Source of the DNA: an uncultured delta proteobacterium
GTDB taxonomy: Bacteria; Myxococcota_A; Polyangia; Polyangiales; Houyiibacteriaceae
DNA length: 64,000 nt
Assembly (NCBI GenBank): GCA_963699755.1
Contig: CAVOVB010000001.1
Coordinates: 1,792,001 to 1,856,000, forward strand
Reading direction: 5' to 3'
In this document: positions 1,727-26,764 of the stretch, piece after piece
How the letters are laid out: each line of letters opens with the position of its first letter
How positions within the stretch are numbered: the first letter of the stretch is position 1
Notes under the pieces: generated by a model
Databases searched by the model: none
The model's input: the letters and a program-made list of their open reading frames with translations, nothing else
What the model was told of the DNA's origin: nothing
Position numbers and translations under genes: made by a program

Positions 1727-2532
1727 AGACCCTCACCAAGACCTGGCTAGCGGCCATTGCCGCAGCGATTCTTCTCTCGACCCCGGCGATATCTGCCGAG
1801 GCGGGAGACCTGAAGGACGCGAGCCAAATCGTAAATCGCACCAACAACGCTCAGTATTACGCGGCGAACGATGGGCGAGCGCTGGTTCGCATGAAGATCG
1901 TCGACAGCAAAGGGCGCTCCCAGCGAAGGCAGTTTGCGGTCCTTCGGCGTGACCTGAAGGACGGCGGCGACCAGAACTACCTCGTCGTCTTCGACCAGCC
2001 GGCTGATGTTCGAAACACGGCGTTCTTGGTGAAGAAGCACGCGAACAAAGACGACGATCGTTGGCTTTATCTCCCGGGTCTCGATCTCGTCAAACGAATC
2101 GCCGCGAGTGATGAGCGCACGAGCTTCGTTGGCACGCACTTCTTCTACGAAGACATCTCCGGGCGGCATCCGGACGAAGACAAGCACGAGCTTCTCGAAA
2201 CGACGGACACCGAGTACGTGGTGAAGAGCACGCCCAAGAGCAGCAAGGGTGTGGAGTTCGCGCACTACACGCTGCGCATCAACAAGAAGACGTTCCTGCC
2301 CAGTACGATCGAGTACGTAAATGCGCAGGGCAAAATCTACCGGCGCATCGAAACCGCCAAGGTGGACACCGTACAAGGGAAGCCGACCATTACGCGCCTC
2401 AAGGTCAGTGACCTGGAGTCGGGTGGATATACGCTGAGCGACGTCAGCAATGTGAGTTACGACCTGGGGATCCCCGACGACATCTTCGTCGAGGGTTCTC
2501 TACGCAACCCGCCCGTGAAGTGGCTTCGCTGA
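1723..2532 (+). CDS. Periplasmic LolA-like outer-membrane lipoprotein-sorting protein
   Basis: Signal peptide. Motifs DDDRWLYLPGLDLVKRI and SFVGTHFFYED are typical of LolA-like partners of MMPL transporters. Confidence 0.8.
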   Translation: MKTLTKTWLAAIAAAILLSTPAISAEAGDLKDASQIVNRTNNAQYYAANDGRALVRMKIVDSKGRSQRRQFAVLRRDLKDGGDQNYLVVFDQPADVRNTAFLVKKHANKDDDRWLYLPGLDLVKRIAASDERTSFVGTHFFYEDISGRHPDEDKHELLETTDTEYVVKSTPKSSKGVEFAHYTLRINKKTFLPSTIEYVNAQGKIYRRIETAKVDTVQGKPTITRLKVSDLESGGYTLSDVSNVSYDLGIPDDIFVEGSLRNPPVKWLR

Positions 2533-2567
2533 GCCCAGCTCGACGACGGGCATGAGGGAGTAGCGAC

Positions 2568-4088
2568 ATGGAACCGACGATTTGTCGAACGAAGCGGTGC
2601 CGCGCTGGCGTCCCATCGCTGAGGTGCTTGGCGGTTGCCTCGTTTGTGTTCGCAGCTCTCGCGTTGGCCTCCGTGGCGTTCGCCCAAGCCGAGGAGACCC
2701 TCGAAGCGGAGGCCGAAGGACCGTTCGATGCAGCGGCAAGCGCAGAGAGTCCCGAAGAGCTGGCTGGCGACGTCGAATCCAACGAAGAGGCCGGCGACGA
2801 CGAGGATTGGGGTGAGTTCGACGACTGGGACGAGGAGAATGGCGGCGATTCCGGCGGCAAATCCGGTGGCAAAGCTTGGGACTTTCAGATCGGCGGCTTC
2901 GTCGAAGGTCTCATCGCACCGCGCGTGGTCCGAAGCAGCGCCAGCGCCAATGAGCTGGTCGCGAACGAGGCGCGCTTTCGGCTGAACCTCGACGCCACCC
3001 ACGAAATCGTTAGCGCGCGATTTCGGGGTGACGTCTTCGCGGATGCCGTCGACCGCCGGATTTGGTTCGACATTCGAGACGCGTCGATCTTCGTCCGTGG
3101 CGGAAGTTGGTTCAGCATGCGGTTTGGCCGACAGGTGCTCACCTGGGGAACGGGCGACTTCCTTTTCTTGAATGACCTCTTTCCGAAGGACTTCAACTCC
3201 TTCTTCATCGGTCGCGCAGACGAATACCTCAAGGCGCCGTCCAACTCGGTGCAGACGACGTTCATGATGAACAAAGTCGGATTGGACTTGATCTGGACCC
3301 CGATTTTCGAGCCGGATCGCTTCATCAACGGGCAGCGTCTGTCGTTCTTCAATCCGCTGGTCGGAGAGATCATCGGCGATCGATCTCTGCTCACACCGAT
3401 CGATCCGGTGTACCCGGAGCAGCGACTGCGAAACGGAACGGTGCACGGCCGTCTTTACGGCACGGCAGGCGCGGTCGAGCTCGCTGCCTATGGCTATGTC
3501 GGCTATTGGATGCAGCCGAATGCCCTTGCGCTGACCGACCCGGTGGACCCGAACACCATCGTGGGGGTGACCTACGCGCGTCTGGCGGTTTACGGCGCGA
3601 GCCTACGCACGCCCCTGTTTGGCGGTCTCTTCAACGTCGAGGGCGCATTCTACGACTCGTACAAGGACCGGGCGGGGACGACTCCTTCGACCCCGAATTC
3701 GCAGTTCCGAGGACTGGTGGGCTATGAGCGCGAGCTCTTCCCCAAGTTCCAAATGGGCTTGCAGTACTATCTCGAGTACACGCTCAAGTACGACGAGCTG
3801 ATCGCGCGCTCGTTCTGGGCTCAATACGAGCAGCACGAATTCCGGCATCTGATCACGCTGCGGCTGAACCAGCTCCTGGTCATGGACAAGCTCGAGCTCT
3901 CGCTCTTCGTGTTCTTCTCGCCGGACGAGCTCGACACCTACATTCGGCCGCGCATCGCCTACAAAATCGTCGAGCCCCTGGCGATGGTCGTTGGCGCGAA
4001 CCTCATGTTCGGACGCGACGACTACACCTTCTTTGGCCAGCTTCAAGAGAACACGAACGTGTACGCGAGGCTTCGTTACTCGTTCTGA
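2568..4088 (+). CDS. Outer-membrane beta-barrel protein associated with the MMPL/LolA-like pair
   Basis: Signal peptide, acidic linker (DDEDWGEFDDWD), GRQVLTWG motif, C-terminal barrel signal YARLRYSF. Start uncertain. Confidence 0.7.
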   Translation: MEPTICRTKRCRAGVPSLRCLAVASFVFAALALASVAFAQAEETLEAEAEGPFDAAASAESPEELAGDVESNEEAGDDEDWGEFDDWDEENGGDSGGKSGGKAWDFQIGGFVEGLIAPRVVRSSASANELVANEARFRLNLDATHEIVSARFRGDVFADAVDRRIWFDIRDASIFVRGGSWFSMRFGRQVLTWGTGDFLFLNDLFPKDFNSFFIGRADEYLKAPSNSVQTTFMMNKVGLDLIWTPIFEPDRFINGQRLSFFNPLVGEIIGDRSLLTPIDPVYPEQRLRNGTVHGRLYGTAGAVELAAYGYVGYWMQPNALALTDPVDPNTIVGVTYARLAVYGASLRTPLFGGLFNVEGAFYDSYKDRAGTTPSTPNSQFRGLVGYERELFPKFQMGLQYYLEYTLKYDELIARSFWAQYEQHEFRHLITLRLNQLLVMDKLELSLFVFFSPDELDTYIRPRIAYKIVEPLAMVVGANLMFGRDDYTFFGQLQENTNVYARLRYSF

Positions 4089-4114
4089 GATTTCAAAACG
4101 AAAGGAACACCGTC

Positions 4115-4315
4115 ATGAACATCGACAAATTGGTTTTTCGAGTTGCAGGGATCATGGTCATAGCCGGCGTGATTCTCGCCTACAGTCACCACATCGCCTG
4201 GCTCATTCTGCCGGCATTCGTCGGCCTGAACATGTTTCAGGCCTCGTTTACCGGCTTCTGCCCGATGGCGACGATTGCCAAGCGTTTCGGGATGAACGAA
4301 GGCAAAGCGTTCTAA
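4115..4315 (+). CDS. DUF2892/YgaP-like small membrane protein
   Basis: Two TM helices, FVGLNMFQASFTGFCP motif, RBS AAGGA upstream. Confidence 0.8.
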   Translation: MNIDKLVFRVAGIMVIAGVILAYSHHIAWLILPAFVGLNMFQASFTGFCPMATIAKRFGMNEGKAF

Positions 4316-4336
4316 CCTGACGACGTCGCGCGATCG

Positions 4337-6259
4337 CTAGTGTCGGCCGTCCGCGTGACAGCTGAGGCAGAAATTCGCGGGCGCGGCGCCCGCCGGATAG
4401 TTGTTCACCTCACGGTGCTTCGCGTCCATCCGGGAACGCGTGTGCTCGCCGTCGTGGCAGCCGACACAGTCGGCGTTCTCACCGCCCACCGGCGAGCCGA
4501 GCGCCGCGTTGTGGCAAGATGCGCAGTCGTTTCGGTATCTCGAGTGCGCTCCTGATTGGATCCGGAAAGCGTTCTCGGGGTGGGTCCCACCGGAGGCGGG
4601 AGTCCAGGCCGCCGTCGTGTGGCAACTCAGGCAGTCGCCGGTGGCGGGGTGCGTTGGCGTCGCGGGGCGCTGCGATTCGTGACAGTCATAGCAGCGCGTT
4701 GGCTCCGGAACATGTGCGAACGTTGCCGGAGTCCAGGTCGGATACGAGTGATGACAGCTGGCACACTCGGGGTCGTACGTTTGCGCATGAAATGGGGTGT
4801 TCGACCTGGGCTCGTTTGCGTGACAGCCAATGCAAGCGGCCGGAAGCGGCGTGTGCGGCGCGACTGGATCGGCGAGTGCCCAGTCGTTCACGACGTGACA
4901 GCCGGCACAGTCCCCAAGCCCCGCGGCCGATTGATGCGTTGGCGTCGCGGGTCTCAGATCACTGTGGCACGCGTTGCAGGCGTTCGGGATCGGCGCGTGC
5001 AAGAAATCAGCCGGCGTCCAACCCGGGTATTGATGGTGACAGCGGGCGCACTCGGGCTGGGCGATCTGGGTGTGGAAGATCGTAGTCTGTCGCGGCTCGT
5101 TTTGGTGACAGGACACGCAAGACGCCGGAAGCGGCGTGTGGAGCGCGACCGGGTCGGCTGTAGCCCAGCTGGTGTGACGATGTGGCAGGAGGCGCAATCG
5201 CCCTGGCTCGCCGCGGTTTGGTGCGTGGCCGTGTTGGGTCTCTGATCGGAGTGACAGTCTACGCAGGTGCCAGGCACTGGCGCGTGGAGGAAATCAGCCG
5301 GTGTCCAACCTGGATATTCATGATGGCAGCTGGCGCACTCGGCGTCGAAGACCTGGGCGTGGAAGATCGTCGGTTGTCGCGGCTCGCTTTGGTGACACGT
5401 CAGGCAGGATGCCGGGAGCGGTGCGTGAAGCGTGGCCGCGTCGGTGACGGCCCAGTCGTCCACGACGTGGCAGCGGGCACAGTCCGCGAGGCCCGCGGCC
5501 GATTGATGCGTTGGCGTCGCGGGTCGCAGATCGCTGTGGCATGCGTTGCAGGCGCTGGGCACTGGCGCGTGTAGAAAGTCTGCTGGTGTCCAACCCGGGT
5601 AGCTCCGGTGGCAGCTGGCGCATTCGGCCTCGAACACCTGAGTGTGGAAGATGTTCTGCGGTTGCGGGTCGTCTTGGTGACAGGTCAGGCAGGATGCCGG
5701 AAGTGGCGTGTGCAGCTCCGCCGGGTCGGTGAGGGTCCAGTCGGTGACGATATGACACGAGGCGCAGTCGCCCAGTCCTTGCGGGGATTGGTGCGTGGGC
5801 GTGTCAGGTCTTCCATCCGCGTGACAGTCTAGGCAGGTGCGCGGCACCGGCGCGTGGAGGAAGTTCGCCTGTGTCCAATCCGGATAGCTCCGGTGACAGC
5901 TGGCGCACTCGGTCTCGACAATTTGCGGCATGGAAGCTCGTCTGTGGTCGCGTCTCGTTTTCGTGACACGTCACGCACGATGCCGGAAGCGGCGTATGAA
6001 TTGTGGTGGAGACCGCGGGGATCCACTCGCGTTCGGTGTGGCAATCCTGGCATGTGCTCGGGAGGGAGTCGTGCGGTGGGTTGATCGCTGCCTTGAGGTC
6101 CGCCGCGTGACACGTGACGCATTCGGCTTGACGGACCGTTCGCCGGCTCATGCTCGATGCTGCCGGCCCCACTGCATCGCCACGCCCATCGATACGGCTG
6201 GCGCTGATTGCGACGGCCGCCGCAATGTGACCAGACAGGCGACGGCAGTTAACCCTCAT
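4337..6259 (-). CDS. 25-heme c-type cytochrome lipoprotein with five tandem tetraheme repeats (frameshifted, reconstructed)
   Basis: Joining ORFs 5804..6259 (3 CxxCH), 4954..5931 (11) and 4337..5197 (11) across a +1 insertion at ~5928 and a +2 AC duplication at ~5175 restores exact repeat spacing. Further +1 indels at ~6140-6200 hide a lipoprotein-like N-terminus (..C-SGAGSIEHEPA). Confidence 0.85.
4620..6000 (-). repeat. Five ~285-bp (95-aa) intragenic tandem repeats, four hemes each
   Basis: Unit HTPLPAS-CxxCH-x18-CxxCH-x19-CxxCH-x18-CxxCH, with the last unit slightly shorter. Near-identical DNA at 4921 and 5493 is 572 bp apart (2x285+2). Confidence 0.9.
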
Positions 6260-6438
6260 GGCGTATATGATAAGCCGATCAATTCACCCTGTCAGGTTAA
6301 TTCAGCGGCCGCGTGAGACCGCAGCCTAGAGGCCAAAATAGCCTCAAAAACCTTTTCTTTCCAGGATGTTAGTAGCCTTGCCAAACCGGGGGACCCGCTA
6401 CCGGGGTCCGATCTAGGATGCTACCTTTCGAGGAATCC

Positions 6439-7142
6439 ATGATCCTTCCCGGCCGAGCGGCAATACGAGCTCTGATCTTCGGAGCGTCGGGCGCGGTGCT
6501 GCTCAGCGGAGCGTGCACCGGCGGGACGCAGGACCACGATCGTCTGCAGGTTCGAGGCGCCGATTGCATCGTCTGTCATTCCGACGATGTTCAGCATGCG
6601 CTTGAACCCACCTCATGAAGGGCTTCCCGGACACCTGCGGAACCTGCCACGGTCAAGAAGCCTGGTCGCCTGCCGCGTTCACGCACACCTGGCCGCTCGT
6701 CGGCGCGCACGAGATGCTCGCCTGCAGCGCATGCCACGTCGGGGATCCACCGGTCTACCAAGGCACGCCCACACTCTGCGTCGGCTGCCATCAGGACGAT
6801 TACGACAACAGCCCCTTCCCAGGTCACGCCGACTTCCCAACGACCTGCGAGAACTGCCACACGACGACCGCCTGGACGCCCGCGGTTGGGGGTACACACC
6901 CCGAGAACGCGTTCCCGATTCAAAATGGCGCACACTCTCCCTATCGCGACGATTGCGTGTCCTGCCACAACCCGGATCTTGGCTCACCCGTGAATGGAGA
7001 AAACGCGGACTGCGTCGGCTGTCACGACGGCGAGCACACGCGAGCCTCGATGGATCCCAAGCATCGCGAAGAGCCCGATTATCCACAGGGTGCGGCGCCG
7101 CCCAACTTCTGCTTGGATTGTCACGCGGACGGTCGCAACTAG
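6439..7142 (+). CDS. Octaheme c-type cytochrome lipoprotein, short paralog of the 25-heme protein (frameshifted)
   Basis: RBS GAGGA, lipobox-like LSGAC, CIVCH, then two +1 insertions (~6601, ~6620) restoring ALNPPHEGFPDT, then 7 more CxxCH. The C-terminal ~95 aa closely match the 25-heme protein (THPENAF..GENADCVGCHDGEHTR..NFCLxCHADGR). Confidence 0.85.
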
Positions 7143-8203
7143 GCTTCTCCGTACTTCGTGACGATCTCGATCCCGATGTCCTGAAGCAGGGCAGTTGGGG
7201 CCGTTCCGCCGATCTGGATTACGACCGCATCGTTTTCGATGGAGAGCGGCTCTTTGGCGCCGTTGCGCAAGATGACGCGGTCCTCGAAGATCTCTTCGAC
7301 CTGCGTGCCCATGAGAGCCGTCAGCCGGCCGGCCTCGATCTCGGCTTCGATTCGCTTTCGGTTCGGCTGACGGCACCTCGCGAAGTTGTTCTTTCGATAG
7401 CTGATCGTCACCGACGCGCAGTTGCCGCCGTCGACCAACGCAAACGCCGACTCGACCGCTGCATTGCCTCCACCGACGACCAAGACGTGCTTGTCTTGAA
7501 ATACCTCGGGTTCGATCACTCGGTAGGCGACTTTGGATCGCTCCTCGCCGGGCACGTCGAGCTTGCGCGGAGAGCCTCTGCGACCGAGGGCCAACAGCAC
7601 GTTTGCAGCCTTGAAGACGCCGCCGGTCGAGGACACCCGCCAATCGCCATCCTGACCGCGCTCGATCTTCTCGACGAGCTCTCCGACCGCGACCTGCAGG
7701 CCGGTTTTCTCACTGATGTCTTGCCACAGCTCGACGAGTTGCTCCTTGCTCATCTTCCTCTTGGACACGCGCCCGTAGATCGGGAAGTCCAAGAAGCCCG
7801 TCATGACGACCTTCGCGCGCGGGTAGTGCGTGATCGTGCCGCCAAACGCTTCACGCTCGAGCAAGAGCACCCGCAACCCCGCTTCCATCAATCGGAGCGT
7901 TGCGCTCGTCCCGGCTGGGCCCGCGCCGATGACCAAGGCATCGAGCGAATCGCCAGCGGCTCTGCGATTCCCTGCGATGATGTGGTCGGCTGCCTGCCTG
8001 CCTTGGGACACGGCGTTGCGGATCAAACCCATTCCGCCGAGCTCGCCGACGATGTACACCCCCGGCTGGTTGGTCTGAAAATCAGGATCGACGTTCGGGA
8101 GCTCGAGCCCGCGCTTGGCCGTGCCAAACACCAAGGTGATCGCTTGAACCGGACAAGCCGACGCGCAGGCCCCGTGTCCGATGCAGCCGAGTGGGTTGGT
8201 GAA
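7139..8203 (-). CDS. Ferredoxin-fused FAD/NAD(P)H oxidoreductase (thioredoxin-reductase-like), N-terminus missing
   Basis: GAGPAG and GGGNAA Rossmann motifs. The frame continues upstream of the ORF-track start as FTNPLGCIGHGACASACPVQAITLVFGT (Fe-S motif) to a TAG near 8204, with no start codon. Confidence 0.8.
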   Translation of the reverse strand, partial: FTNPLGCIGHGACASACPVQAITLVFGTAKRGLELPNVDPDFQTNQPGVYIVGELGGMGLIRNAVSQGRQAADHIIAGNRRAAGDSLDALVIGAGPAGTSATLRLMEAGLRVLLLEREAFGGTITHYPRAKVVMTGFLDFPIYGRVSKRKMSKEQLVELWQDISEKTGLQVAVGELVEKIERGQDGDWRVSSTGGVFKAANVLLALGRRGSPRKLDVPGEERSKVAYRVIEPEVFQDKHVLVVGGGNAAVESAFALVDGGNCASVTISYRKNNFARCRQPNRKRIEAEIEAGRLTALMGTQVEEIFEDRVILRNGAKEPLSIENDAVVIQIGGTAPTALLQDIGIEIVTKYGEA

Positions 8204-8705
8204 CTATGAGACGCTCCGGCCGAGCGGCCTCATCGGGCACGGCTACGGCATCGTCGGAACGATCCTGATTTTGGCCAACCTCCTTTACCTGGCGCGACGC
8301 AGGCTTGCGCGCTGGTCGCTCGGGTCGATGAAGACCTGGCTCAACCTGCACGTATTCACCGGCCTCTTCGGCTCGCTCCTGATCCTCTTCCACTCGGCGT
8401 TCCAGTTCCGGACGCCCATCGCGCTAGTCACGGCGATCAGTCTTGGCGTGGTCGTGGTGACGGGGATCGCTGGCCGCTATCTCTATGCGCTGACACCGCG
8501 TCCCGATCGCCAGGCGCTCGACGGAGCGCTCTCTTCGCTCGACGAGTTGGCCCCCGGATGCAGCGCGCGCGTCTATCAGGCCCTCGCGATCCATCAGGTG
8601 ACGCAGGTCGACACCCATCACTGGTTGATCGCCAAGCTCGCGGCCATTCCGAAGTGGGCGAGTGAAGCGCGATCCCGCGGTTTTCTGGTCAGCTATGCCA
8701 TCGAA
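8203..8705 (+). pseudogene. Internal fragment of a His-containing membrane protein (LRPSG-IGHGYG type), truncated at both ends
   Basis: YETLRPSGLIGHGYGIVGTILILANLLY..WLNLHVFTG..LFHSAF: three TM helices with His residues. No credible start. The ORF-track tail after ~8705 is the off-frame shadow of a cytochrome. Confidence 0.65.
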
Positions 8706-9064
8706 GCTGCCATAGCCCGTCGAAAAAGGATCGGCTCAGCGGGCGAGGAGCGACGTACCGAGGGGCGCCGCGTGACTGCGCTGGTTGCCACAGGGACATT
8801 CACGCTGGGCAGTTTCGGCTCAGCGCGCCCGAGCGCGCGTGTGACGCCTGTCACGCCACCGAGTCGTTCGCAATTGAGGCTTTCGCCCACGAGGAGCTCG
8901 CCGACTATCCGCTCGAAGGCGCTCACGCCGAGCTCGAGTGCGTCGGCTGTCACCAAAAAGAGCGCCTCCGAAGCGGGGTGCAAGCGGTGAGATACCGGCT
9001 CGGGTACCGCGAGTGCGCCGATTGCCATGGCAACCCTCACGCGCGAAGAAAGGGGCAGCGATGA
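8705..9064 (+). pseudogene. C-terminal fragment of a multiheme cytochrome c (4 CxxCH plus a partial motif), not in the ORF track
   Basis: Frame reads SCHSPSKKDRLSGRGATYRGAPRD-CAGCH-..-CDACH-..YPLEGAHAELE-CVGCH-..-CADCH-GNPHARRKGQR-stop. TGA 9062-9064 overlaps the ATG at 9061. Confidence 0.85.
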
Positions 9065-9996
9065 ACCGCGCGCTGTTCATCGTCCTGTTCATCGTTTTGG
9101 CCGTCGTCGCTCTCGCCGGCATCGCCGGACTGGCCATCGCCAAAGACCCCGAGCGGAACGCTGCGCGAGCCAGGGCCGCCAGCCACAACTCGATTACCGA
9201 AGGGCTCGATTGCGGCAACTGTCACACGCCGGCGAGCTGGAAGATGATGGGCGGCAAGTCAGGCGAAGGCTTCGACCATTCCCGCACCGGCTTCCCCCTC
9301 ACGGGGAGACACGAGCCCGCTGCCTGCAATCAGTGTCACAGCGGCGAGCGGCGAGTGACGAGGGAGTGCGGAGCATGTCACGAAAATCCACACCAAAAAC
9401 GATTGAGCGGTCGATGCGACAGCTGCCATTCGTCTCGACGATGGAATGACCTCGAGGCGTTCGAAATCCATCGCCGAACGCGATTTCCGCTGACGGGTAT
9501 GCACGCTCTTGCTGCTTGCACCGAGTGCCATCTTCGCAACGGGGAGAGGCAATGGACGACGGTTCAAAGCGACTGCTTCTCCTGTCACGCGGCAGAGTAT
9601 CTGGATCCGAGCGTTCATCCGAATCACCGAGGCACGGGTACGTCGCCGCACTGTCCCACAGGATTGTTCGCAGTGTCATACGGCGCGCGCGTGGAGCCCC
9701 GCGTTCATCGACCCGACGAACATTGCACCGCTCGCGTCGACCGGCGCCGTCAGCAAGGGGATCGGCGGCATGGTCGATGCCCGCCCGATCACGACAGATA
9801 TTTTCCGGTTTCTCGCGGGCCGCACCGCGGGGCTCCGTGCAATAGCTGCCACACCTCGGCTCGAACGCCTCGCCTGGTCCGCTGCACGGGGTGCCATGCG
9901 CACAACGCGGTCAAGCTCCAGCAGCAGCATGGAAGGCGCGTGTCGAGCAGCGGCGTCTCGTGCCTTGGCTGCCACCCCGGAGGAACCGCGCGATGA
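9061..9996 (+). CDS. Periplasmic decaheme cytochrome c with FPLTGxH repeats (two compensating frameshifts)
   Basis: Signal peptide MNRALFIVLF.., 6 CxxCH, then CSQCH in an alternate frame between ~9650 and ~9780, then 3 more CxxCH. Confidence 0.85.
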   Translation: MNRALFIVLFIVLAVVALAGIAGLAIAKDPERNAARARAASHNSITEGLDCGNCHTPASWKMMGGKSGEGFDHSRTGFPLTGRHEPAACNQCHSGERRVTRECGACHENPHQKRLSGRCDSCHSSRRWNDLEAFEIHRRTRFPLTGMHALAACTECHLRNGERQWTTVQSDCFSCHAAEYLDPSVHPNHRGTGTSPHCPTGLFAVSYGARVEPRVHRPDEHCTARVDRRRQQGDRRHGRCPPDHDRYFPVSRGPHRGAPCNSCHTSARTPRLVRCTGCHAHNAVKLQQQHGRRVSSSGVSCLGCHPGGTAR

Positions 9997-11519
9997 CGCG
10001 GACCTGGTTCGGGAGCGCTGATTGCATGCACGGCCCTGTTCGCCGCAACTTCGGCGGCCAACGCAGCATCTGGTCGCAGAGTGAGCGTCAAAGTCGTCGA
10101 CATTGCGGGCGGACGCGCCTATCTGACGCCAGGCGAAGCCGCAGGGGTCGCGAGTAGGCTCCGTCGTGGTTCTTCGTGATCGTCGCTATCGCGTGGTTGG
10201 GGCTACGGGCAAGCACGCGGTCATCGAAATGAAAGGACGTGAGCTTCGAGTTGGGCATGACCGGCCGAGCAGAGGCCAAGCTCAAACGAAGCGCCAGCGC
10301 ATCCCTTCCCAAACCCAAGCCACTTACGGCGTACGAGAGCCAATGGCCAGAGCCGGTGCTTCCCGCCACGCGGCAGACGCCCGAGTACGTGCCGCTTGGT
10401 ACTTCCTCCGGCGGGGATCGAATCGACCTAGCGCTTTCGACCGATGTCGGTGGGACGATTGCGCTGAGCGACGGGGAGTCCTTTGGCCGCGCATCGCTGC
10501 GCGCGCGGCTCCACGCCGAGCCTTTTGCCCAACCCGTGTCCTTCGACGTCGGCGTCGGACGACTCGATGGGCTTCGTGTGCGCTCCCCATCATGGGGTGG
10601 CTTCACCATCGGCGCGTTCGGTGGCACGGTGCCCGACCCGCTCGACTATTTGCCGACTCTGGATACGACGCGCTTTGGGGCAGAGCTTGCATACCAAAAC
10701 GAATCGCTCGATGCCCAGCCGTTCGTGGGCCTGTCCGTCCACGCTTCGACGTTCATGGGCGACATCGACGAGCGACGTCTCAATCTGGAGTTCGACGTCT
10801 TTCCGGGAACCGGCCACGTCGCAGGGCACATCGAGCTCTCCATGCACGACGAGGTCAACCCTTGGCAGGCGCCGCGCTTCGAAGTGAGCGCCGCTGGCCT
10901 CGATGCATCGATTCGTGTCGGCATCTTTCAGCTTGCTGGCCGTTTCGACATGCGGTTGCCCGAACGCTCGCTCTGGCTCACCTCGTACCTGCCCTTGGGG
11001 TACTTGTGCAACACCGTTCCTGACCCAGCCGCTAGCACCGGGGACGAGGTCGTGTGTCTCAACAGCAATGACCAGCGATACTTCGGTGGCTTGGATGCGA
11101 GCTTCAGTTTTTCACGTTTCGCACTGCATGCGGGGGCCAACATCGTGCACAGCGAGACCGCCGCTGAATTCGAGCAAATCTCTGGCTACCTGCAGGCCCG
11201 CATCTTGCGTATCGCAGACATTGCATGGGCGGACGTTTCGGTGGCTGCCTACGCACGCTCGTTCGTATCCGACTATGCGGCGCGTCTCGGAGCAGGGGTG
11301 GACATCCGGCGCATCGGTGAAATATCCGCGTACTATCGGGTCTCGCTCAATCAGTATGTGGCGTCCCCGACGAACTGGTTGCAGCATTCGGCCGGCGGTA
11401 TCTTGTATTTCGCCCTCGGGCACGACCTCGACCTCGGTGTGCGCGTCGACGGAATCTTCGGCGAAGATGTCAGCGTGCTCGTGCTCGGCTCGAATCTGAC
11501 TTGGCGGCCGTCCTGGTGA
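9993..11519 (+). CDS. Outer-membrane beta-barrel (putative cytochrome-associated porin), frameshifted near the 5' end
   Basis: ATG overlaps the decaheme stop. Removing +1 bases at ~10014, ~10150 and ~10255 gives signal peptide MTRTWFGALIACTALFAATSAANA joined to ORF 10239..11519. Amphipathic strands and C-terminal LTWRPSW. Confidence 0.7.
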
Positions 11520-11558
11520 CCGTTTCGAAACGCGGTCCAGCCCCCGCCCAGCCCAGCG

Positions 11559-12992
11559 CTACTCGATTCGCTCCCTCAGGAGCTCGATCTCGCGAACGAA
11601 ACCAGTGGCGATGTCCTGCAAGTCAGGGACGAGCTCGGCGCAGGCCAGCGCCCCGAAACAAAGCCGGTCCACCACGCTCATCACCGTGATGTTGAGCCCC
11701 GAGCCCTGCTGCACCGGTCCGAGCGGGAAGAGGTGAGTGAGCCTGGTCCCCGCTGTGTAGAGGGGTACGGGCGGGCCTGCGATGTTCGAAATGATCAGGT
11801 TCCACAAAGGGGGAACCCGGTCGGCCAGGTGCCGTGACGAAAAGAAGCCCATGAAATGCGTCGCCATCCAGGGCACCGTGATGTTGGTCACGAGGTCGGC
11901 GAAGTTCTTGAGGATGTCGCCGCCACCCGATTTGCTGTGTTGTCTCTTCCTGCGCGATGTTTCCTGGTTGATGGCGATCAGCCGATCCAACGGATCTTCG
12001 GATTGAATCGGCAGGTGCACCCGAATCACCGAAACGCGGTTGCCGGCTCGGTCTCCTTCGTGCCGAACCGATACCGGAACGGTTGCGACCAGAGGGCGAT
12101 CGGGAAGGCCCCCATGTTTGCCAAGCCAAGATCGCAAGGCTCCGCAACAGCCGGCCAGAACGACATCGTTCACCGTCGTTCCGAAGGCGCTCTTGATCGC
12201 TTTCACCTCGTCGAACGAGACATCGGCGAACGCGACCGAGCGATTGGGCGTGAGGGCACCGTTGAACATCGTCGGCGGTGCTTCGAAGAGGGGCGGCTTC
12301 TCCGAGGCTTCATGGTCCGCAGGCGCGGCTGGTTGCGAGCCCCCTTTGTCTCGGACGGCCTCGACCATTTTCGTGGCCGCCTCGACGGCGCGCCGCGGCT
12401 TCCCTGCCAGGGTCCGCAGCGTGTCGGCCGCCAGCCAGGGGATCGTCGGTTCTCGATCGGGGAGCCAGGGTTCCTCTGGCGGAGGGATCACTCGGCCCTC
12501 GGGACTGGTGTCCATCAGCTCGCCGGCGATGGCCGCGCTTCGGCCACCGTCCATCGCCGCATGGTGGATCTTCATGACGAGCGCGAGCTTTCCGCCTTCC
12601 AAGCCTTCGACTAGCGCAGCCTTCCAAAGCGGCCTGTTGCGTTCGAGACAGGTGCCGGCGAAGCTCCCAACGAATTCGCAGAGTTCGCGCATCCCCCCGG
12701 GAGAGGGCAGGGAGACGCGCACGAGGTGCTTGTCGAGATCGAAAGCCGGGTCTTCGATCCAGTGAGGGTCGCCGATCTGTAGCGGCCCTTCAACGATTCT
12801 ACGCCTGAACGGCGGAATGAGATGGATCCGCTCGGCAAACCGCTGCCGTGTCAGGTTGAACGCCGAAGCCTCGAGGTCGTCCGCGTCGAGCGAATCCTCT
12901 GGCTCCAGGATCAAGATCCCCATGGTGTGCATGGGCATCTCCGGTGTCTCGGCGTAGAGCATCGCCGCATCGAGAGTCGATACTCGGATCAT
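11559..12992 (-). CDS. Wax ester synthase/diacylglycerol acyltransferase (WS/DGAT)
   Basis: Catalytic HHAAMDG, PMHTMG, TVNDVVLA, ISNIAGP and GLNITVMS motifs. Confidence 0.93.
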   Translation of the reverse strand: MIRVSTLDAAMLYAETPEMPMHTMGILILEPEDSLDADDLEASAFNLTRQRFAERIHLIPPFRRRIVEGPLQIGDPHWIEDPAFDLDKHLVRVSLPSPGGMRELCEFVGSFAGTCLERNRPLWKAALVEGLEGGKLALVMKIHHAAMDGGRSAAIAGELMDTSPEGRVIPPPEEPWLPDREPTIPWLAADTLRTLAGKPRRAVEAATKMVEAVRDKGGSQPAAPADHEASEKPPLFEAPPTMFNGALTPNRSVAFADVSFDEVKAIKSAFGTTVNDVVLAGCCGALRSWLGKHGGLPDRPLVATVPVSVRHEGDRAGNRVSVIRVHLPIQSEDPLDRLIAINQETSRRKRQHSKSGGGDILKNFADLVTNITVPWMATHFMGFFSSRHLADRVPPLWNLIISNIAGPPVPLYTAGTRLTHLFPLGPVQQGSGLNITVMSVVDRLCFGALACAELVPDLQDIATGFVREIELLRERIE

Positions 12993-14230
12993 GTCGTACT
13001 TCCTGGCTCCAAAAACCCGATGCCCATCATGAAGCGGGCCATCTCCGTCAGATATGCGCCACGGTCGAGGTGGATGCTGTGGCTACCGGGAAACCAATGC
13101 ATGCGACAGCGCTGCCAATGATCCCAGAGCAGCCTAGAATGTTTCGGTGGAGCCAGCCGGTCGCCCGCGCCGCCGACGATCATCAGCCGCTCGCGTGGCA
13201 ACACCGCAGGATAGCTGAGCGGGCAACTCACAGCGAGGAGACGGCGCGCGTCGGCAGAGCTCAGGCCCGACGCCGAGAGTGCGGTTCGCATGAGCGCACC
13301 AAGTGGCTGCCACTCCAGAACCAAGTCCGCCACGCTGATGATCGGCACGTTGGGCAGCGCGAATGCCAATTTCGGTTCGACGCTCGCCAGCATCGACGAA
13401 ATGAAGCCGCCGAGGCTGAGGCCGGTCACGCCAACTTGCTCGACGCCTCGTTCACGCTGAAGCCAGTTGAGAAGGATCCTGAAGTCGAATACCGACTGCG
13501 CCACCGCTTCGTTGAATCGAGAAGTGCCGCCCGCGAAAAAGCCGTGTCCCGAAAACGGCGAGAAGCGTGTTTGGCGAGGACCGTGAAAAGGAAGCGTGAA
13601 CAAGGCGATGTCACAGCCCATGCGATAGAACCAAGGGAGCGCGAAGAACCACTCGTTGATCAGATAACCTTCTGCCGTGAATCCGTGAATCGCCACGATC
13701 GTCGGTCTCGGCCCGTCGCGGTGCCGCGTCACGCGCGCAAATGCGACGCGGTTTCGGTCGTGTCGCAGGTAAGGGCGGTGTTGATTCGGATGGACTGGCT
13801 GGAACGGGCTGTCGAAGCGCAGCACCTCACACACCCCGTCGTCCGGTTCGAAACGCGGAAACCAGCGCCCTCTTTCGACGCGAACGCGCACGCCCGATGG
13901 GGGATCATGAAAGAACCGGCTCCGGTCGCCCGATTCCGCCATCTCGGCGTACAGAGCCGCGTCATGCATGGATCGGCGAAGCTCGAGCGGATTGAAGCCA
14001 AACGGAATGGCCGTCGAGCCCACCATCGTGCCGAAGATGGCCCTCACCACGTGGTCAAACGCGGCGGCCGCGCCAATCTGCAAGCGATCCGCACGCGCAA
14101 GATCGAACTTCTCCGGCGTTCGCGCGAAATCGTCGTCGAGATGCTCCCACCAATGACCGCTCGGCACCAAAGGAGCCGCCCGTTCGTAAGACTCGTGCAC
14201 TATCCGAGAGACAATCGCGGAGTCTTCCAT
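12989..14230 (-). CDS. Alpha/beta hydrolase (esterase/lipase-like)
   Basis: Nucleophile elbow GLSLGG, GDRL Asp and GSH His. Overlaps the WS/DGAT start. Confidence 0.8.
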   Translation of the reverse strand: MEDSAIVSRIVHESYERAAPLVPSGHWWEHLDDDFARTPEKFDLARADRLQIGAAAAFDHVVRAIFGTMVGSTAIPFGFNPLELRRSMHDAALYAEMAESGDRSRFFHDPPSGVRVRVERGRWFPRFEPDDGVCEVLRFDSPFQPVHPNQHRPYLRHDRNRVAFARVTRHRDGPRPTIVAIHGFTAEGYLINEWFFALPWFYRMGCDIALFTLPFHGPRQTRFSPFSGHGFFAGGTSRFNEAVAQSVFDFRILLNWLQRERGVEQVGVTGLSLGGFISSMLASVEPKLAFALPNVPIISVADLVLEWQPLGALMRTALSASGLSSADARRLLAVSCPLSYPAVLPRERLMIVGGAGDRLAPPKHSRLLWDHWQRCRMHWFPGSHSIHLDRGAYLTEMARFMMGIGFLEPGSTT

Positions 14231-21817: not shown

Positions 21818-21979
21818 GGCCCCCGTCGCGACGGTAGGACGCGCAAAATTTGCGCCACGCACGACCGGGCGCCGGTCGGCCTTGCAGTTTCGGTCGCCCC
21901 CAGTAGCATCCCGCCCAATCGTCTGGAGACCGGGGTCTCTGAAGAAGCATTCGCCAATCTTTGAGGAGAGGAGGTGACG

Positions 21980-22675
21980 ATGCTGTCTAAGTCCGCTGCG
22001 CGCGCGTTCTTTTTGTCTGGAACGTTACTTTTCAGCGCGGTTTTCATTTGGCTCACGGTCGACACGTTCCAACGCATCCCAGCTCAGACCAACTCGGATG
22101 AACTGACCGAATCGGTGGCACGCGGGAAGCAGCTCTGGGAGGAGAACAACTGCATGGGCTGTCACACGCTGCTCGGTGAGGGGGCGTACTACGCGCCCGA
22201 GCTGACGCGTGTGTACGACCGTCGTGGGCCAGCCTTCATCGCTCAGATGCTCCGGGACCCCGAAGCAGTCTACCCAGGGCAGCGTCGGATGGTGAAGTAC
22301 GACTTCAGCGAAGCCCAGATCGACGACATGAACGCGTTCTTCGAGTGGATCGGCCGGATGGACCTCAACGGCTTTCCTCCGAAACCCACAATCGGTTTGG
22401 CGGGAGCGGCTCCCATCCCCATCCCGGGCGGCGAGCGACCGGAGATCTTCTCTCAGGTGTGCACGGCATGTCACTCCCTCGGCGGGATTGGCGGCGCCAT
22501 TGGGCCACCACTCGACTTCGTGGGCGACCGCTTCGATCGAGGCTACCTGATGAGGTGGATCACCGATCCGCAAGCGGTCAAGCCCGGCACGACGATGCCG
22601 ACGCTCGCGCTCACCGAGCAGCAACGCAATGAAGTCGTCATCTTTCTCTCCAAGCAACGCGAGGGCGGGCTATGA
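21980..22675 (+). CDS. norC: Nitric oxide reductase cytochrome c subunit, diheme form
   Basis: N-terminal TM, NCMGCHTLLGEGAYYAPELT, plus a second cytochrome c domain (CTACH..KPGTTMP). Confidence 0.92.
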   Translation: MLSKSAARAFFLSGTLLFSAVFIWLTVDTFQRIPAQTNSDELTESVARGKQLWEENNCMGCHTLLGEGAYYAPELTRVYDRRGPAFIAQMLRDPEAVYPGQRRMVKYDFSEAQIDDMNAFFEWIGRMDLNGFPPKPTIGLAGAAPIPIPGGERPEIFSQVCTACHSLGGIGGAIGPPLDFVGDRFDRGYLMRWITDPQAVKPGTTMPTLALTEQQRNEVVIFLSKQREGGL

Positions 22676-24039
22676 AGTACGAATCGCAAAAAGTCGCGTA
22701 CTGGTTTTTCGCGACCTGCATGCTCTTGCTGAGCTTGCAGCTGGTTTACGGTTTCATCATGGCATTTGCACACGTTGGCTACGACGGGCTGCATCCCTGG
22801 GTTCCCTTCAACGTCGCGCGCGCCTCGCACAACAATCTCTTGGTCATGTGGCTCTTGGCGGGCTTCATGGGCGCCGCGTACTACATCATTCCGGATGAGT
22901 GTGAGCGGCCGCTCTACTGGCCCAAGCTCGCGTACGTGCAGTTGATCGCGTTCGTGATCGTCGGCGTGACTGCGATCATCGGTTTCCACTTCAACTGGTG
23001 GGAGGGGCGCAAGTTCCTCGAGATTCCGCGTCCGCTCGACTACCTCGTCGTCGTCGACGTGCTTTTGTTCGTCGCCAACATCGGCATGACCATTTGGAAG
23101 GCCCCCAAGATGACCACGACTTCGATCGTGCTCTTCTTCGGTCTCCTGATGGCGGCCGTCCTCTACCTGCCGGGGATGATCCCGACCGACCACCAGACAC
23201 ACGATGCGTTCTGGCGCTGGTGGGTCGTTCACCTCTGGGTCGAAGGCGTCTGGGAGCTCATCATGGGCGGCATTCTTGCGTATCTGTTGATCCGGCTCAC
23301 CGGCGTCGACCGCGAGATCGTCGAGAAGTGGCTCTATGTCATCGTCGGCTTCACGTTCTTGTCGGGCATACTCGGCACGGGGCACCACTACTACTTCATC
23401 GGCACGCCGAACTACTGGCTCTGGGTCGGCGGCATCTTCAGCGCCCTCGAGCCGCTCGCGTTCCTAGGCATGGCGATTTACGGCCTCGCACTGGCGAAGA
23501 AGGGCGGTCGAAACCATCCAAATCGAATCGCTTTGTTCTGGACGGTGGGTACCTGCGTCATGTCGTTCGTTGGAGCCGGCTTCCTCGGCATCGCACACAC
23601 GCTTCCGCAGGTGAACCTGTACACGCACGGCACACTGGTGACGGCGATGCACGGTCACATGGCCTTCTGGGGCGCCTACGCGATGTTGGTCCTGGCCATC
23701 ATCACCTACGCTATGCCGCAGCTGACCGGTCGCAAGCTCTTCGATACACCGAGCGCGACCTATGCGTTTTGGTCGGCCAACATCGGCATGACTGCCATGA
23801 CGGTCGCGTTCGGCATTGCCGGCGTGGCCCAGGTCTACCTCGAGCGTCGCGCGGGCATGGAGTTCCTCGACGTTCAGCGCGAGCTCCAGGTCCACTTCAT
23901 TGGGCTCATCTTGGCGGCGACTCTCTTCACGTCGGGCATCCTCGCGTTCATCTACAATTTCATTCGCTACGGTTGGCCGGTAGGTGACGTCGAAGAGCCC
24001 ATCCCCACGGGCACCAGGGCAGCGGTCCCGGCGGAATGA
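22672..24039 (+). CDS. norB: Nitric oxide reductase catalytic subunit
   Basis: HLWVEGVWE, GTGHHYY, SALEP and HGHMAFWGAY motifs. Confidence 0.97.
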   Translation: MKYESQKVAYWFFATCMLLLSLQLVYGFIMAFAHVGYDGLHPWVPFNVARASHNNLLVMWLLAGFMGAAYYIIPDECERPLYWPKLAYVQLIAFVIVGVTAIIGFHFNWWEGRKFLEIPRPLDYLVVVDVLLFVANIGMTIWKAPKMTTTSIVLFFGLLMAAVLYLPGMIPTDHQTHDAFWRWWVVHLWVEGVWELIMGGILAYLLIRLTGVDREIVEKWLYVIVGFTFLSGILGTGHHYYFIGTPNYWLWVGGIFSALEPLAFLGMAIYGLALAKKGGRNHPNRIALFWTVGTCVMSFVGAGFLGIAHTLPQVNLYTHGTLVTAMHGHMAFWGAYAMLVLAIITYAMPQLTGRKLFDTPSATYAFWSANIGMTAMTVAFGIAGVAQVYLERRAGMEFLDVQRELQVHFIGLILAATLFTSGILAFIYNFIRYGWPVGDVEEPIPTGTRAAVPAE

Positions 24040-24815
24040 GGGCGACCCCGCCCTGGTATCGTCCCGTCGGCCGAGAGGTCGAGCTCTTCGAGCACGCTCA
24101 TCGCCAAAGGCTACCGCTTTTGCTCGCCGGGCCGACCGGCTGTGGCAAGACGCGGTTCGTCGAGGCGATGGCGGCCCAACTCGACTTGCCCCTGATCACA
24201 GTGGCCTGCCACGACGAGACCTCGTCGATCGATTTGGTCGGACGCTTCTTGATCAGGGGCGCCGAAACGGTTTGGCAAGACGGCCCAGTCACCCGGGCGG
24301 TGCGAGCGGGCGCCGTTCTCTACCTCGACGAGATCATCGAGGCGCGAGAGGACGTGATTGTGGTCCTACACTCGCTCACCGATCATCGGCGCGAGCTCTA
24401 CATCGACCGGCTGGACGAAACCTTGTTCGCCCCTGAGGGTTTCATGGTCGTCGCCAGCTTCAATCCAGGCTATGCGCGGGGCTTCAAAGAGCTCCGGCCG
24501 TCGACCCGGCAGCGCTTCGTCGTGCAGCGGTTCTCGTATCCCGAAGCGAGGGTCGAAACCGAGATCGTGGCGCACGAAGCCAAGCTCGAAGACGGCCCGG
24601 CCAAGCGACTCGTCGAGTTTGCGAGCAAGGTGCGCGCCATGGAGGAGCTCCAACTCGCGGAGACGGTCTCGACTCGACTGCTGGTGACGGCCGGCAAGCT
24701 GATCGCGAGCGGCGTGGCGCCCCGGGTTGCCTGCAACGCAGCGGTCGTGCAACCGATCACCGATGACCGTGCCCAGTTGGAGGCCTTGCAGGATTTGGCC
24801 AACCTGATGTTCTGA
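24036..24815 (+). CDS. norQ: NorQ/NirQ/CbbQ AAA+ ATPase
   Basis: Walker A GPTGCGKT, LYLDEI, SFNPGY, LRPSTRQRF, STRLL. Confidence 0.95.
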   Translation: MRATPPWYRPVGREVELFEHAHRQRLPLLLAGPTGCGKTRFVEAMAAQLDLPLITVACHDETSSIDLVGRFLIRGAETVWQDGPVTRAVRAGAVLYLDEIIEAREDVIVVLHSLTDHRRELYIDRLDETLFAPEGFMVVASFNPGYARGFKELRPSTRQRFVVQRFSYPEARVETEIVAHEAKLEDGPAKRLVEFASKVRAMEELQLAETVSTRLLVTAGKLIASGVAPRVACNAAVVQPITDDRAQLEALQDLANLMF

Positions 24816-26764
24816 TGGAATGGGATCAGCGAGCGTTTGCTTGGCTCTACCGATCGTTTCGGCGGGTGGCGGGCAAGAGCCCCGCTACCGGGGTCGAGTC
24901 CCCGTTGGAGTCGCTGACAGCCCGCTTCGAGACCTTGAGCAACTTGCTCACCGGCGCGAAGTGGGACGTCGTTTCTGGCAAAGCGCTGGGCGGCGCCGGG
25001 CCCGGACGGCTGGTTCTACCTGAGAGCGTCGCCTGGCTTGCGGACCCGGAGGAGCAGGCATCTTTCTATCTCTACCGTGTCGTCGTCGGGGTAACCGCGT
25101 CGGAGCTCGGGTTCGTTGCCGACGAAGCCTGGTCGAGTCAAAGGCGCGCCTTGGCGATGCTGATCGCGATTCCAAGCATCCACCGGGAGATCGAGGCTCG
25201 TTATCCCGGGGCCGAGTCGCTCGTCGATCGCGCTGCCGCAACTGCGGGCGGCCAGTTCCCATTCGATGAGCGCGTCGCCGCGAACCGTTGCTTCTCGAAT
25301 GCGTGTCGAACAATTTTGCGGCGTGACTCGGTGCCATTGAGCGAGGACTCCGGAGCGCGGGTCGTAGAGCAGGATCTCGTTGATGCGGCAATACGTCCTC
25401 ACGACCAACGGAGTCTTTGCCAAGCGTCATCCGACTTCGAACGCGCACTCCAGAGGCTATCGAAGAGACGAGCCCAAGGTGAGTATCGATCACCGTGGGG
25501 GCAGCTCCTGCCGCCTTCCAAGCCCTGGAATGTCTCCCTCGAGCCCCCCGAAGACCCACACAGCAACTTGCCAAGCGGTACCGAGCGAAAGATGCGGCGC
25601 CGGCCCAGCGAGGTGGAGTACGTCGACCTCGAATCGCAAAAGGACAAAGACAATCCGCTGGTTCATTCGTTCGAGAAGGTGCACACCGCCACCGAATATC
25701 AGAGCGGCCGAAAGCAGCTCGATGGCTCCGATCAGCTCGCCCAACAAGAGGAGGCGCTCGAGGAGCTCGAGCTCAGCAAGCTCACGCGGACCGCCGAAAC
25801 CGCGCAATCGGTCTACCGCGCCGATCTGCGGGCCGGTTTGCATACCGCGGACCTCGACGAAGAGCCTTCTTCGACTCGCGCCCATCGGTATCCCGAATGG
25901 AATTTCAAGCATCGCGCGTACCGCGACGACTGGTGCACGGTCAACGAGCAGATCTCACCGCCAAGTGGCTCGGCATCGAGCGTCGCTGCGGCGAGCCGCC
26001 GACTGCACGGGGAAGTGCTGCGTCTTCAGGCGGAGCTCAAACGTCTCGAGCTCGAGCGTCGGTGGCGCAACCGTCAGCTCGACGGCAGCGAAATCGACAT
26101 CGACGCGCTCGTGGACCGGCAGGCGACCCTGATGGCGGGCCGGCACCCTGACCCACGGATCTACGTCCGTAGGAAGGTTCACGACTCCGAGCTCGCCATG
26201 CTGATCTTGGTTGACGCGAGCCTCTCGAGCGATTCCTGGGTTTCGGGGAAACGGATCTTCGATGTCGTCCGCGATTCGACTCAGGTGCTCGTCGAGTCGT
26301 TCGAGCCGACGTCCGCCAAGCTTTCGATCTGCGCGTTTTACAGCAACACCAGGCGCGACTGCCGATTCTTGGTCGCCAAGGGATTCGATGATTCCACGCG
26401 TCTGGGGCTGCAACGGCTCCATGGGATTGCGCCCGCGGGCTACACGCGGATCGGTCCAGCCGTTCGGCATGCCCTCGAGGTGCTGGACCGGAGCGGTGCG
26501 CGCCGCCGCCTCATCTTGCTCCTCACCGATGCGAAACCCACGGACTACGACCACTACGAGGGCCACTACGGCGTCGAAGACGTGCGCCAGTCGCTTCGAG
26601 AGGCAGGGGAGCAGGGGGTTCATTGCCTCGCGCTCGCCGTTCGCGACAAAGGGGAAGCGTACCTCACGCACATGTTTGGACCGCACGGCTGGATGCTCTT
26701 GCCCGACGTGCATTCGCTTCCGGGGCGTTTCGTCTCGGTGGCCAGCGACTTCTTACGAAGCTAA
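24815..26764 (+). CDS. norD: NorD vWA-domain NOR maturation protein
   Basis: YPEW, MIDAS DASLSS, YTRIGPAVRH, LLTDAKPTDYDHYEG. Follows norQ. Confidence 0.92.
   Translation: MEWDQRAFAWLYRSFRRVAGKSPATGVESPLESLTARFETLSNLLTGAKWDVVSGKALGGAGPGRLVLPESVAWLADPEEQASFYLYRVVVGVTASELGFVADEAWSSQRRALAMLIAIPSIHREIEARYPGAESLVDRAAATAGGQFPFDERVAANRCFSNACRTILRRDSVPLSEDSGARVVEQDLVDAAIRPHDQRSLCQASSDFERALQRLSKRRAQGEYRSPWGQLLPPSKPWNVSLEPPEDPHSNLPSGTERKMRRRPSEVEYVDLESQKDKDNPLVHSFEKVHTATEYQSGRKQLDGSDQLAQQEEALEELELSKLTRTAETAQSVYRADLRAGLHTADLDEEPSSTRAHRYPEWNFKHRAYRDDWCTVNEQISPPSGSASSVAAASRRLHGEVLRLQAELKRLELERRWRNRQLDGSEIDIDALVDRQATLMAGRHPDPRIYVRRKVHDSELAMLILVDASLSSDSWVSGKRIFDVVRDSTQVLVESFEPTSAKLSICAFYSNTRRDCRFLVAKGFDDSTRLGLQRLHGIAPAGYTRIGPAVRHALEVLDRSGARRRLILLLTDAKPTDYDHYEGHYGVEDVRQSLREAGEQGVHCLALAVRDKGEAYLTHMFGPHGWMLLPDVHSLPGRFVSVASDFLRS

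Follow-up and report, generated by a model that had tools for sequence, protein, structure and literature searches.

A repeat-built multiheme cytochrome gene, broken in this assembly

The window, that is, the whole 64,000-nucleotide stretch of DNA analysed, contains on its minus strand (4337-6259) a region with 25 CxxCH motifs, located by six-frame translation between positions 6121 and 4369; 500 base shuffles of the same region gave a mean of 0.04 motifs and a maximum of 2. The motifs are split 3 + 11 + 11 over three reading frames, with no single open frame, and a tandem array with a period of 285 bp (4.1 copies, 73% matches) occupies positions 4839-6000. The repeat spacers are 18, 20, 18 and 19 aa long, each of them holding a His in the translations, and those of the C-terminal cap measure 15, 31, 14 and 28 aa. 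Alignment of the units to each other located frame breaks of +1 near 5926-5929 and +2 at 5172. No lipobox can be read from the ATG at 6259, because three +1 insertions shift its Cys codon out of frame. The features of the gene are as follows.

4337-6259, minus strand: the whole multiheme cytochrome c gene, built of repeats and disrupted in this assembly (from motif count, relatives and alignment to the related locus L054)
6174-6259, minus strand: signal peptide with the Cys codon of the lipobox at 6174-6176, which three +1 insertions (6139, 6177 and 6196) shift from the reading frame; the lipobox is intact in L001, L006 and others
6038-6121, minus strand: N-terminal two-heme cap, common to 8- and 14-heme paralogs
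4619-5998, minus strand: five four-heme units of 95 aa (285 bp), each made of two diheme halves of ~47 aa, corresponding to units 1, 3, 4, 5 and 6 of the intact gene
5712-5713: junction at which unit 2 (285 bp) is missing
5926: +1 frameshift insertion, not in contigs of the four public runs compared (4/4)
5172-5173: +2 frameshift insertion, likewise not in contigs of the four public runs (4/4)
4337-4600, minus strand: C-terminal three-heme cap, common to paralogs across Polyangia
6267-6295, minus strand: sigma-70-like promoter consensus match (10/12), 8 nt before the ATG at 6259, a match that by itself does not demonstrate function

The gene is intact in related bacteria

The region represents a single gene in damaged form; in relatives this gene encodes a 29-heme, lipobox-bearing cytochrome. 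In contig C7 of the same genome the gene is one frame of 735 aa, with 29 CxxCH motifs (about 25 aa per heme) and a lipobox, and intact single-frame 29-heme genes also occur in nine other genomes of the genus and in three metagenome contigs. We compared 15 distinct complete copies, counting identical duplicates once and excluding flank-cut duplicates and the partial copies L009, L021, L025, L026, L027, L029, L030, L033 and L034. Thirteen have the layout 2 + 6×4 + 3 = 29 hemes; the other two, with four and three units, have 21 and 17 hemes, and come from metagenome assemblies that could themselves be collapsed. Five units, or 25 hemes, were found in none of the 15. The sequence-only reading, which had proposed a single polypeptide with 25 hemes arranged as 2 + 5×4 + 3, was thus right about the 25 motifs of the region, the 95-aa period and the existence of one gene, read in a single frame in the intact copies; the window copy is spread over three frames, and it is short by one unit and four hemes. 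Its fear that assembly had expanded the array was the reverse of what we found, since relatives hold more units, not fewer, and three separate genes were rejected on the single frame of every intact copy.

The spacer pattern is identical in all 13 complete 29-heme copies (two of which are nearly identical). In each of these copies there is at least one His in every one of the first 25 spacers, the last three spacers hold 2, 0 and 2, and one further His precedes heme 1, giving 29 spacer His positions plus that one; a distal His is therefore available for every heme. The spacer His is also invariant across 49 two-unit fragments. A lipobox-like motif, called with a simple regular expression plus hydropathy rather than a trained predictor, is present in 12 of the 13 copies, and the remaining one is cut at its 5' end. 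The lipid anchor, also proposed from the sequence alone, is thus borne out in relatives and lies out of frame in the window copy. Units at the same position are 74-81% identical between genomes, while units within one genome average 62% identity, indicating that the six-unit layout is old and inherited.

Frameshifts and the missing unit most likely result from assembly error

The window and L054 are 95.2% identical over 10,947 aligned bases. Against this locus, the window shows 13 insertions of 1-2 nt plus gaps of 285, 503, 1509 and 153 bp, all within 5172-10547, and we saw no frame-breaking changes in the coding sequence of 2001-5171 and 10548-13000. All 13 small frame-breaking changes are insertions, and the 285-bp gap removes exactly unit 2, in frame, joining at sequence common to the units. 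The multiheme gene contains no stop in 636 codons and has a dN/dS of 0.21; values for five neighbour genes are 0.07-0.12, and that of the remnant of a 20-heme cytochrome is 0.66, calculated on only 3 synonymous and 6 non-synonymous changes.

Frameshifts are not restricted to the cluster. In the part of the window's contig (C1) that is colinear with C7, 20 of 207 genes are frameshifted, mostly through single-base insertions, with 24 net insertions versus 8 deletions in 19 of these genes. A gene near 1,670,000, outside the window, which we take to be rpoC-like from its motifs, carries three +1 insertions. The density of small insertions is much higher in the cluster, with 13 in 5.4 kb compared with a contig background of 0.105 per kb. 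A comparable run of truncated genes lies near C1 1,871,000-1,874,000.

Contigs from four public sediment runs (three studies; runs with a share under 0.2 were not used) represent relatives at 88-99% identity, seen as contigs and not as reads of the source strain. The insertions at 5172 and 5926 are absent from all four. At 5712, runs X5 and X9 carry an extra unit of 285 bp and X1 has a loose end matching the tail of unit 2; some contigs of X2, X5 and X9 cross this position at about 90-92% identity, which may reflect alignment of a sister unit. One run has 503 extra letters at 8202. In X1 and X2, contigs also join 4313 directly to 11557, without the cluster, with sides of only 38-49 letters.

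We consider it most likely, and indeed highly probable, that the frameshifts and the missing unit are assembly errors, because dN/dS in the multiheme gene is 0.21, stops are absent and the rpoC-like gene on the same contig is also frameshifted. The cause is perhaps low coverage of a cluster carried by only part of the population. Additionally, the gaps of 503 and 1509 bp (3×503) sit 502 bp apart (window 8202-8705, versus L054), a pattern that suggests dropped 500-bp windows in window-based polishing.

It is improbable that the strain instead carries a freshly decaying cluster, with real mutations behind the frameshifts and gaps and the multiheme gene reduced to a pseudogene. Such decay would fit the confinement of the damage to 5172-10547 with clean flanks, a cluster that is dispensable (its flanks are directly joined in X1 and X2, and it is patchy in the genus) and a 285-bp junction at unit-common sequence, as recombination would produce; the dense damage relative to the contig background could also come from real, very recent decay. 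However, mutation in bacteria is usually biased towards deletions, and here all small frame-breaking changes are insertions; the missing stop codons and low dN/dS, the same kind of +1 errors in an essential rpoC-like gene and the gap pattern pointing to polishing also argue against decay. We regard as very improbable a genuine five-unit, 25-heme allele in which only the frameshifts are errors: five units would fit a 2 + 4n + 3 series that includes 17- and 21-heme forms, and the gap, which preserves the frame, has the length of a single unit, but none of the 15 distinct complete copies elsewhere has five units, unit 2 is present in the closest relative and in three of the four runs, and three other large gaps lie within 5 kb. 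Programmed frameshifting was rejected, because the sites are conserved in no relative or run.

Contig C7 (436 kb) is colinear with C1 1.59-1.91 Mb over 300 kb at 83% identity, and the two have a 5.5-kb end in common at 99.8%. C7 most likely belongs to a sister species in the same bin, whose contamination is 9%. If the bin does combine two species, gene copies in this genome are overcounted. About one gene in ten on this contig is frameshifted, so that caution is needed with any broken gene found on it; its heme count is most likely an assembly product.

The gene lies in an accessory cluster with a predicted role in electron transfer

The cluster continues to the right of the multiheme gene with the following features.

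4314-11557: extent of the accessory cluster, whose two flanks are directly joined in the X1 and X2 contigs
6418-7142, plus strand: divergent paralog with 8 hemes, in which the same caps flank a single three-heme unit; the frameshifts in this copy are at 6600 and 6623
7139-8202, minus strand: membrane-anchored ferredoxin/FAD NAD(P)-binding oxidoreductase, its 5' part lost in the 503-bp gap
8203-8705, plus strand: central part of an inner-membrane protein with five helices and two WX3HX13H motifs (295 aa when intact), truncated at either end by a gap
8706-9064, plus strand: 3' remnant of a 20-heme cytochrome, with 1509 bp missing upstream
9061-9996, plus strand: 10-heme cytochrome, frameshifted here
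9993-11519, plus strand: likely outer-membrane beta-barrel without family hit, with frameshifts and a 153-bp gap here

When intact, the cluster comprises the 29-heme lipoprotein, the divergent 8-heme lipoprotein, the ferredoxin/FAD reductase, the five-helix membrane protein, the 20- and 10-heme cytochromes and the likely barrel. Searching with the membrane protein retrieved 79 loci, many of them on short contigs, of which 67 contain the oxidoreductase, 65 the barrel and 59 the C-terminal cap; they are labelled Polyangiales, Myxococcales and Haliangiales/Kofleriaceae, and the closest include SG8-38. The intact membrane protein has five hydrophobic segments and WX3HX13H motifs at 97 and 262 that are invariant in 41 homologs. 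In helix 4 it has TGxxG (T138, G139, G142) instead of SGxxG, which is found in a homolog from Emticicia (25% identity). The barrel candidate is a conserved exported protein of 558 aa, with an alternating pattern and a terminal Trp by a crude count, and it gave no NCBIfam hit as the intact protein and no Pfam hit for the part in the window. The cytochrome that directly follows the membrane protein has 20 hemes in this genus and mostly 23 in other Polyangia, and its signal-like N-terminus suggests a periplasmic location. A Pfam match of the oxidoreductase to the enterotoxin B subunit (E 0.002, below cut-off) was taken as chance.

Among the 54 other genomes of the genus, ten contain the four-heme-unit gene and 21 the membrane protein, which indicates that the conduit does not need the former. 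Family searches detected heme-lyase family genes (three matches) in the genome, where a GspD secretin is also present; Emticicia CcsA as a query gave no match there.

Other redox loci were observed along the way. L002 (G000:C1:610000-629999) is a second multiheme cluster, with 13- and 23-heme cytochromes, a small membrane-bound cytochrome and proteins of 7, 8, 9 and 10 hemes, some of them lipoprotein-like. In one metagenome contig, an unrelated 24-heme repeat lipoprotein of ~1100 aa adjoins the 29-heme gene (L024 3518-7117, minus strand). Plasmid pEMTOL02 of Emticicia, a cultured member of Bacteroidota, carries a related cluster (L132 9805-18501) with ccsA, the membrane protein, the reductase and cytochromes of 23 and 40 hemes, making this strain a possible test organism; the plasmid search also matched sphingomonads. 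Within the window, four genes at 21974-26764 (plus strand) resemble a cytochrome c nitric oxide reductase operon, presumably norCBQD judging by their motifs, and a lipoprotein-like frame of 756 aa at 47206-49476 (minus strand), with about seven GGMGGDPG(V/L/I) repeats, adjoins a Tat-signal protein.

The repeat unit belongs to a large family of diheme-repeat proteins

Each 95-aa unit consists of two halves of ~47 aa with the form H-x-P-x-P-x-x-CxxCH ... H ... CxxCH ... W. The units contain 10.5% Pro and 0.4% Met, with no conserved Met, and the His described earlier for each spacer of 18-20 aa was confirmed in every repeat spacer. A profile built from the 49 two-unit fragments matched 2364 representative proteins at E values up to 0.001. 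The best 150 of these matches have 11-131 hemes (median 35), with 25 or more in 109, and exactly one His in 4417 of their 5510 short spacers. Such heme numbers, and a single His per spacer, are thus ordinary for the family. One family member of proteobacterial type has relatives labelled Rhodocyclales, Aquabacterium and Burkholderiaceae. Two repeat relatives, P0243 and P0247, have 131 and 129 CxxCH motifs; both are single-member clusters, possibly expanded by assembly. The record heme number has been given as 85 (PMC5566968).

Common end caps enclose three-heme or four-heme units

We identified 55 complete frames, including a few duplicates, that end in a cap-like motif and have 5, 6, 7, 8, 11, 13, 14, 17, 20, 23 or 29 hemes, nearly all of them steps of a three-heme unit. 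Among the loci examined, no other genus showed the four-heme unit. At L037 (1928-8500) and L043 (4141-8500), paralogs with 8, 14 and 29 hemes and the same caps are arranged in tandem. What is new here is that the same two caps enclose either three-heme or four-heme units, in proteins of 5 to 29 hemes.

We tentatively propose, as a possibility that we find less probable than its negation, that Polyangia possess a set of surface heme wires graded in length, in which a two-heme N-cap and a three-heme C-cap would surround n three-heme units (5, 8, 11, 14, 17, 20 and 23 hemes) or, in one sediment genus, n four-heme units of another repeat family (17, 21 and 29 hemes). The number of units might then act as a molecular ruler for the reach to an external electron acceptor, because six units are held constant across copies that are only 70-83% identical and because some genomes have 8-, 14- and 29-heme versions side by side. 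The earlier suggestion that repeat number sets the length agrees with the whole-unit variation across the family, and less so with the six units kept in 13 of the 15 copies.

Resemblance to known electron conduits

Repeat-built single-chain heme wires have already been described (PMC5566968; PMC10138318, in excerpt), and among them those of Geobacter include solved structures (PMC10138318, in excerpt). In layout, the cluster appears closest to PCC3, a comparison with the Sideroxydans and Leptothrix systems that we made by descriptions and not by sequences. The membrane protein of PCC3/PCC4 is defined by WX3HX13H motifs (He et al. 2017, PMC5566968), and for the extracellular cytochromes of PCC3 heme numbers of 10-35 have been reported, together with models that are long and for the most part linear (Hoover et al. 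2023, PMC9900912, in excerpt). In the accessible parts of bioRxiv 10.1101/2025.02.27.639646 and PMC11429942, PCC3 is described as untested, and the latter reports that proteomes of ES-1 did not reveal Slit_1448, the extracellular cytochrome of PCC3. Both systems would combine a repeat-built, Thr/Ala/Ser-rich cytochrome of variable heme number (~25 aa per heme here; 22-39 in PCC3) with a five-helix membrane protein of ~300 aa carrying two WX3HX13H motifs (in helices 3 and 5 in PCC3), a cytochrome of ~20 hemes (about 21 in PCC3) and a likely barrel, and in both the wire function is only predicted. They differ in their hosts, which are Polyangia (Myxococcota) here and Proteobacteria for PCC3; in the lipoprotein nature of the cytochrome studied here, with its fixed two- and three-heme caps and Pro-rich four-heme unit; in the additional 10-heme cytochrome, flavin-ferredoxin reductase and one to three lipoprotein paralogs; and in the TGxxG of helix 4, a near miss of SGxxG. 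We found no paper on a PCC3-like conduit in this genus in the openly accessible literature, which leaves subscription journals mostly outside its coverage, and the terms 'extracellular electron' and 'iron' are absent from the accessible main text of a preprint on Myxococcota metabolism (10.64898/2026.07.10.737566).

With GSU1996 and GSU0592 (12 hemes) and GSU2210 (27 hemes) of Geobacter, the protein has in common many hemes on one module-built polypeptide (PMC10138318, in excerpt; PDB 3OV0), and its profile matches 3ov0 weakly (E 2e-20). The GSU1996 type is, however, soluble and periplasmic, with triheme c7 domains that have one His/Met heme each (PMC10138318, in excerpt), whereas here we find a doubled diheme repeat with a four-heme period, evenly spaced motifs, nearly no Met and a lipobox. 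As in MtrCAB, where MtrA is a decaheme and MtrC/OmcA are surface lipoproteins, a lipoprotein cytochrome is encoded beside a barrel and a decaheme, but it lacks MtrC-like beta-barrel domains and has almost three times as many hemes. The best PDB profile hit of the multiheme protein is 6r2q chain A, which is listed under another name and which we take to be MtrA. The DmsE/MtrA family TIGR03508 was not matched (119.7 bits versus a cut-off of 192.2; 29 hemes versus ten).

Heme ligation and proposed function

The conserved His of the intact copies are enough to supply every heme, in agreement with the bis-His chain suggested by the sequence-only reading, and all hemes are presumably bis-His ligated. 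Structure prediction was of limited help: a single-sequence fold of the mature 29-heme protein was unusable (pLDDT 37.5, pTM 0.19, heme-free), and a two-unit fold with a 68-row alignment (pLDDT 60.9, pTM 0.35, heme-free) displayed only short helices at the CxxCH motifs. These low-confidence, heme-free models found no fold match in Foldseek PDB or among 48,161 representative chains, and the ESM Atlas returned only generic c7/c3 clusters and no model. The predicted complex of the barrel, the 10-heme cytochrome and the N-terminal 101 residues scored 0.00, which speaks neither for nor against an interaction.

The reading that we favour, with a probability of roughly 60%, is that the gene in its intact form encodes the 29-heme, lipobox-bearing cytochrome, the frameshifts and missing unit here being likely assembly errors, and that its product is a likely lipid-anchored, predicted bis-His heme chain that would form the outer segment of a PCC3-like electron conduit. 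The protein would be exported by Sec, receive its hemes in the periplasm and be lipidated, and would then be sorted to the outer membrane and displayed on the surface, perhaps by type II secretion. Each half-unit of 47 aa would hold two hemes, and the units would stack into an extended chain of roughly 25-30 nm if its spacing is like that of GSU1996, about 1 nm per heme. Electrons might originate in the quinone pool or at the flavin-ferredoxin reductase, enter the diheme-b-type membrane protein and travel via the 20-heme cytochrome, the 10-heme cytochrome and the barrel to the 29-heme protein, which would hand them to an acceptor outside the cell, for example metal oxides or humics. That they flow outwards is guessed from the host's lifestyle, which is likely heterotrophic and facultative.

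The main rival, which we judge rather unlikely, places the intact 29-heme lipoprotein on the periplasmic side, where it would store electrons as a capacitor or serve as a periplasmic wire like GSU1996 or GSU2210, and would not be a surface terminal. Lipoproteins by default face the periplasm. Moreover, the gene is preceded by a promoter-like site of its own, is oriented away from the barrel operon and is missing in about half of the genomes that carry the cluster, and a capacitor role has been proposed for GSU1996 (PMC10138318, in excerpt). Nevertheless, the constant 20/23- and 10-heme cytochromes, which have no lipobox, already suit the periplasm; the lipoproteins are the length-variable part (5-29 hemes), like the extracellular PCC3 cytochrome (10-35 hemes; PMC9900912, in excerpt), and the repeat is related to proteobacterial diheme-repeat proteins of the extracellular PCC3 cytochrome type. 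A bent or globular multi-domain protein like HmcA, with each unit forming a compact tetraheme domain, is a very unlikely alternative to a straight wire: profile matches do include HmcA and class III cytochromes, and the low pTM leaves the domain arrangement open, but those matches fall below family cut-offs and are driven by CxxCH spacing, ~24 aa per heme with evenly spaced motifs provides little protein for a globular core, and PCC3 cytochrome models are long and mostly linear (PMC9900912, in excerpt).

Significance

More than 2000 protein clusters contain the diheme repeat, with as many as 131 hemes, and no close relative of it has a solved structure; the strict periodicity of the 95-aa unit makes it well suited to structure determination. 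A natural length series would likewise let conduction be measured against length. If our favoured reading is true, abundant uncultured sediment myxobacteria have a PCC3-like route for electron exchange with solids, and about 40% of the genomes from this genus would encode it.
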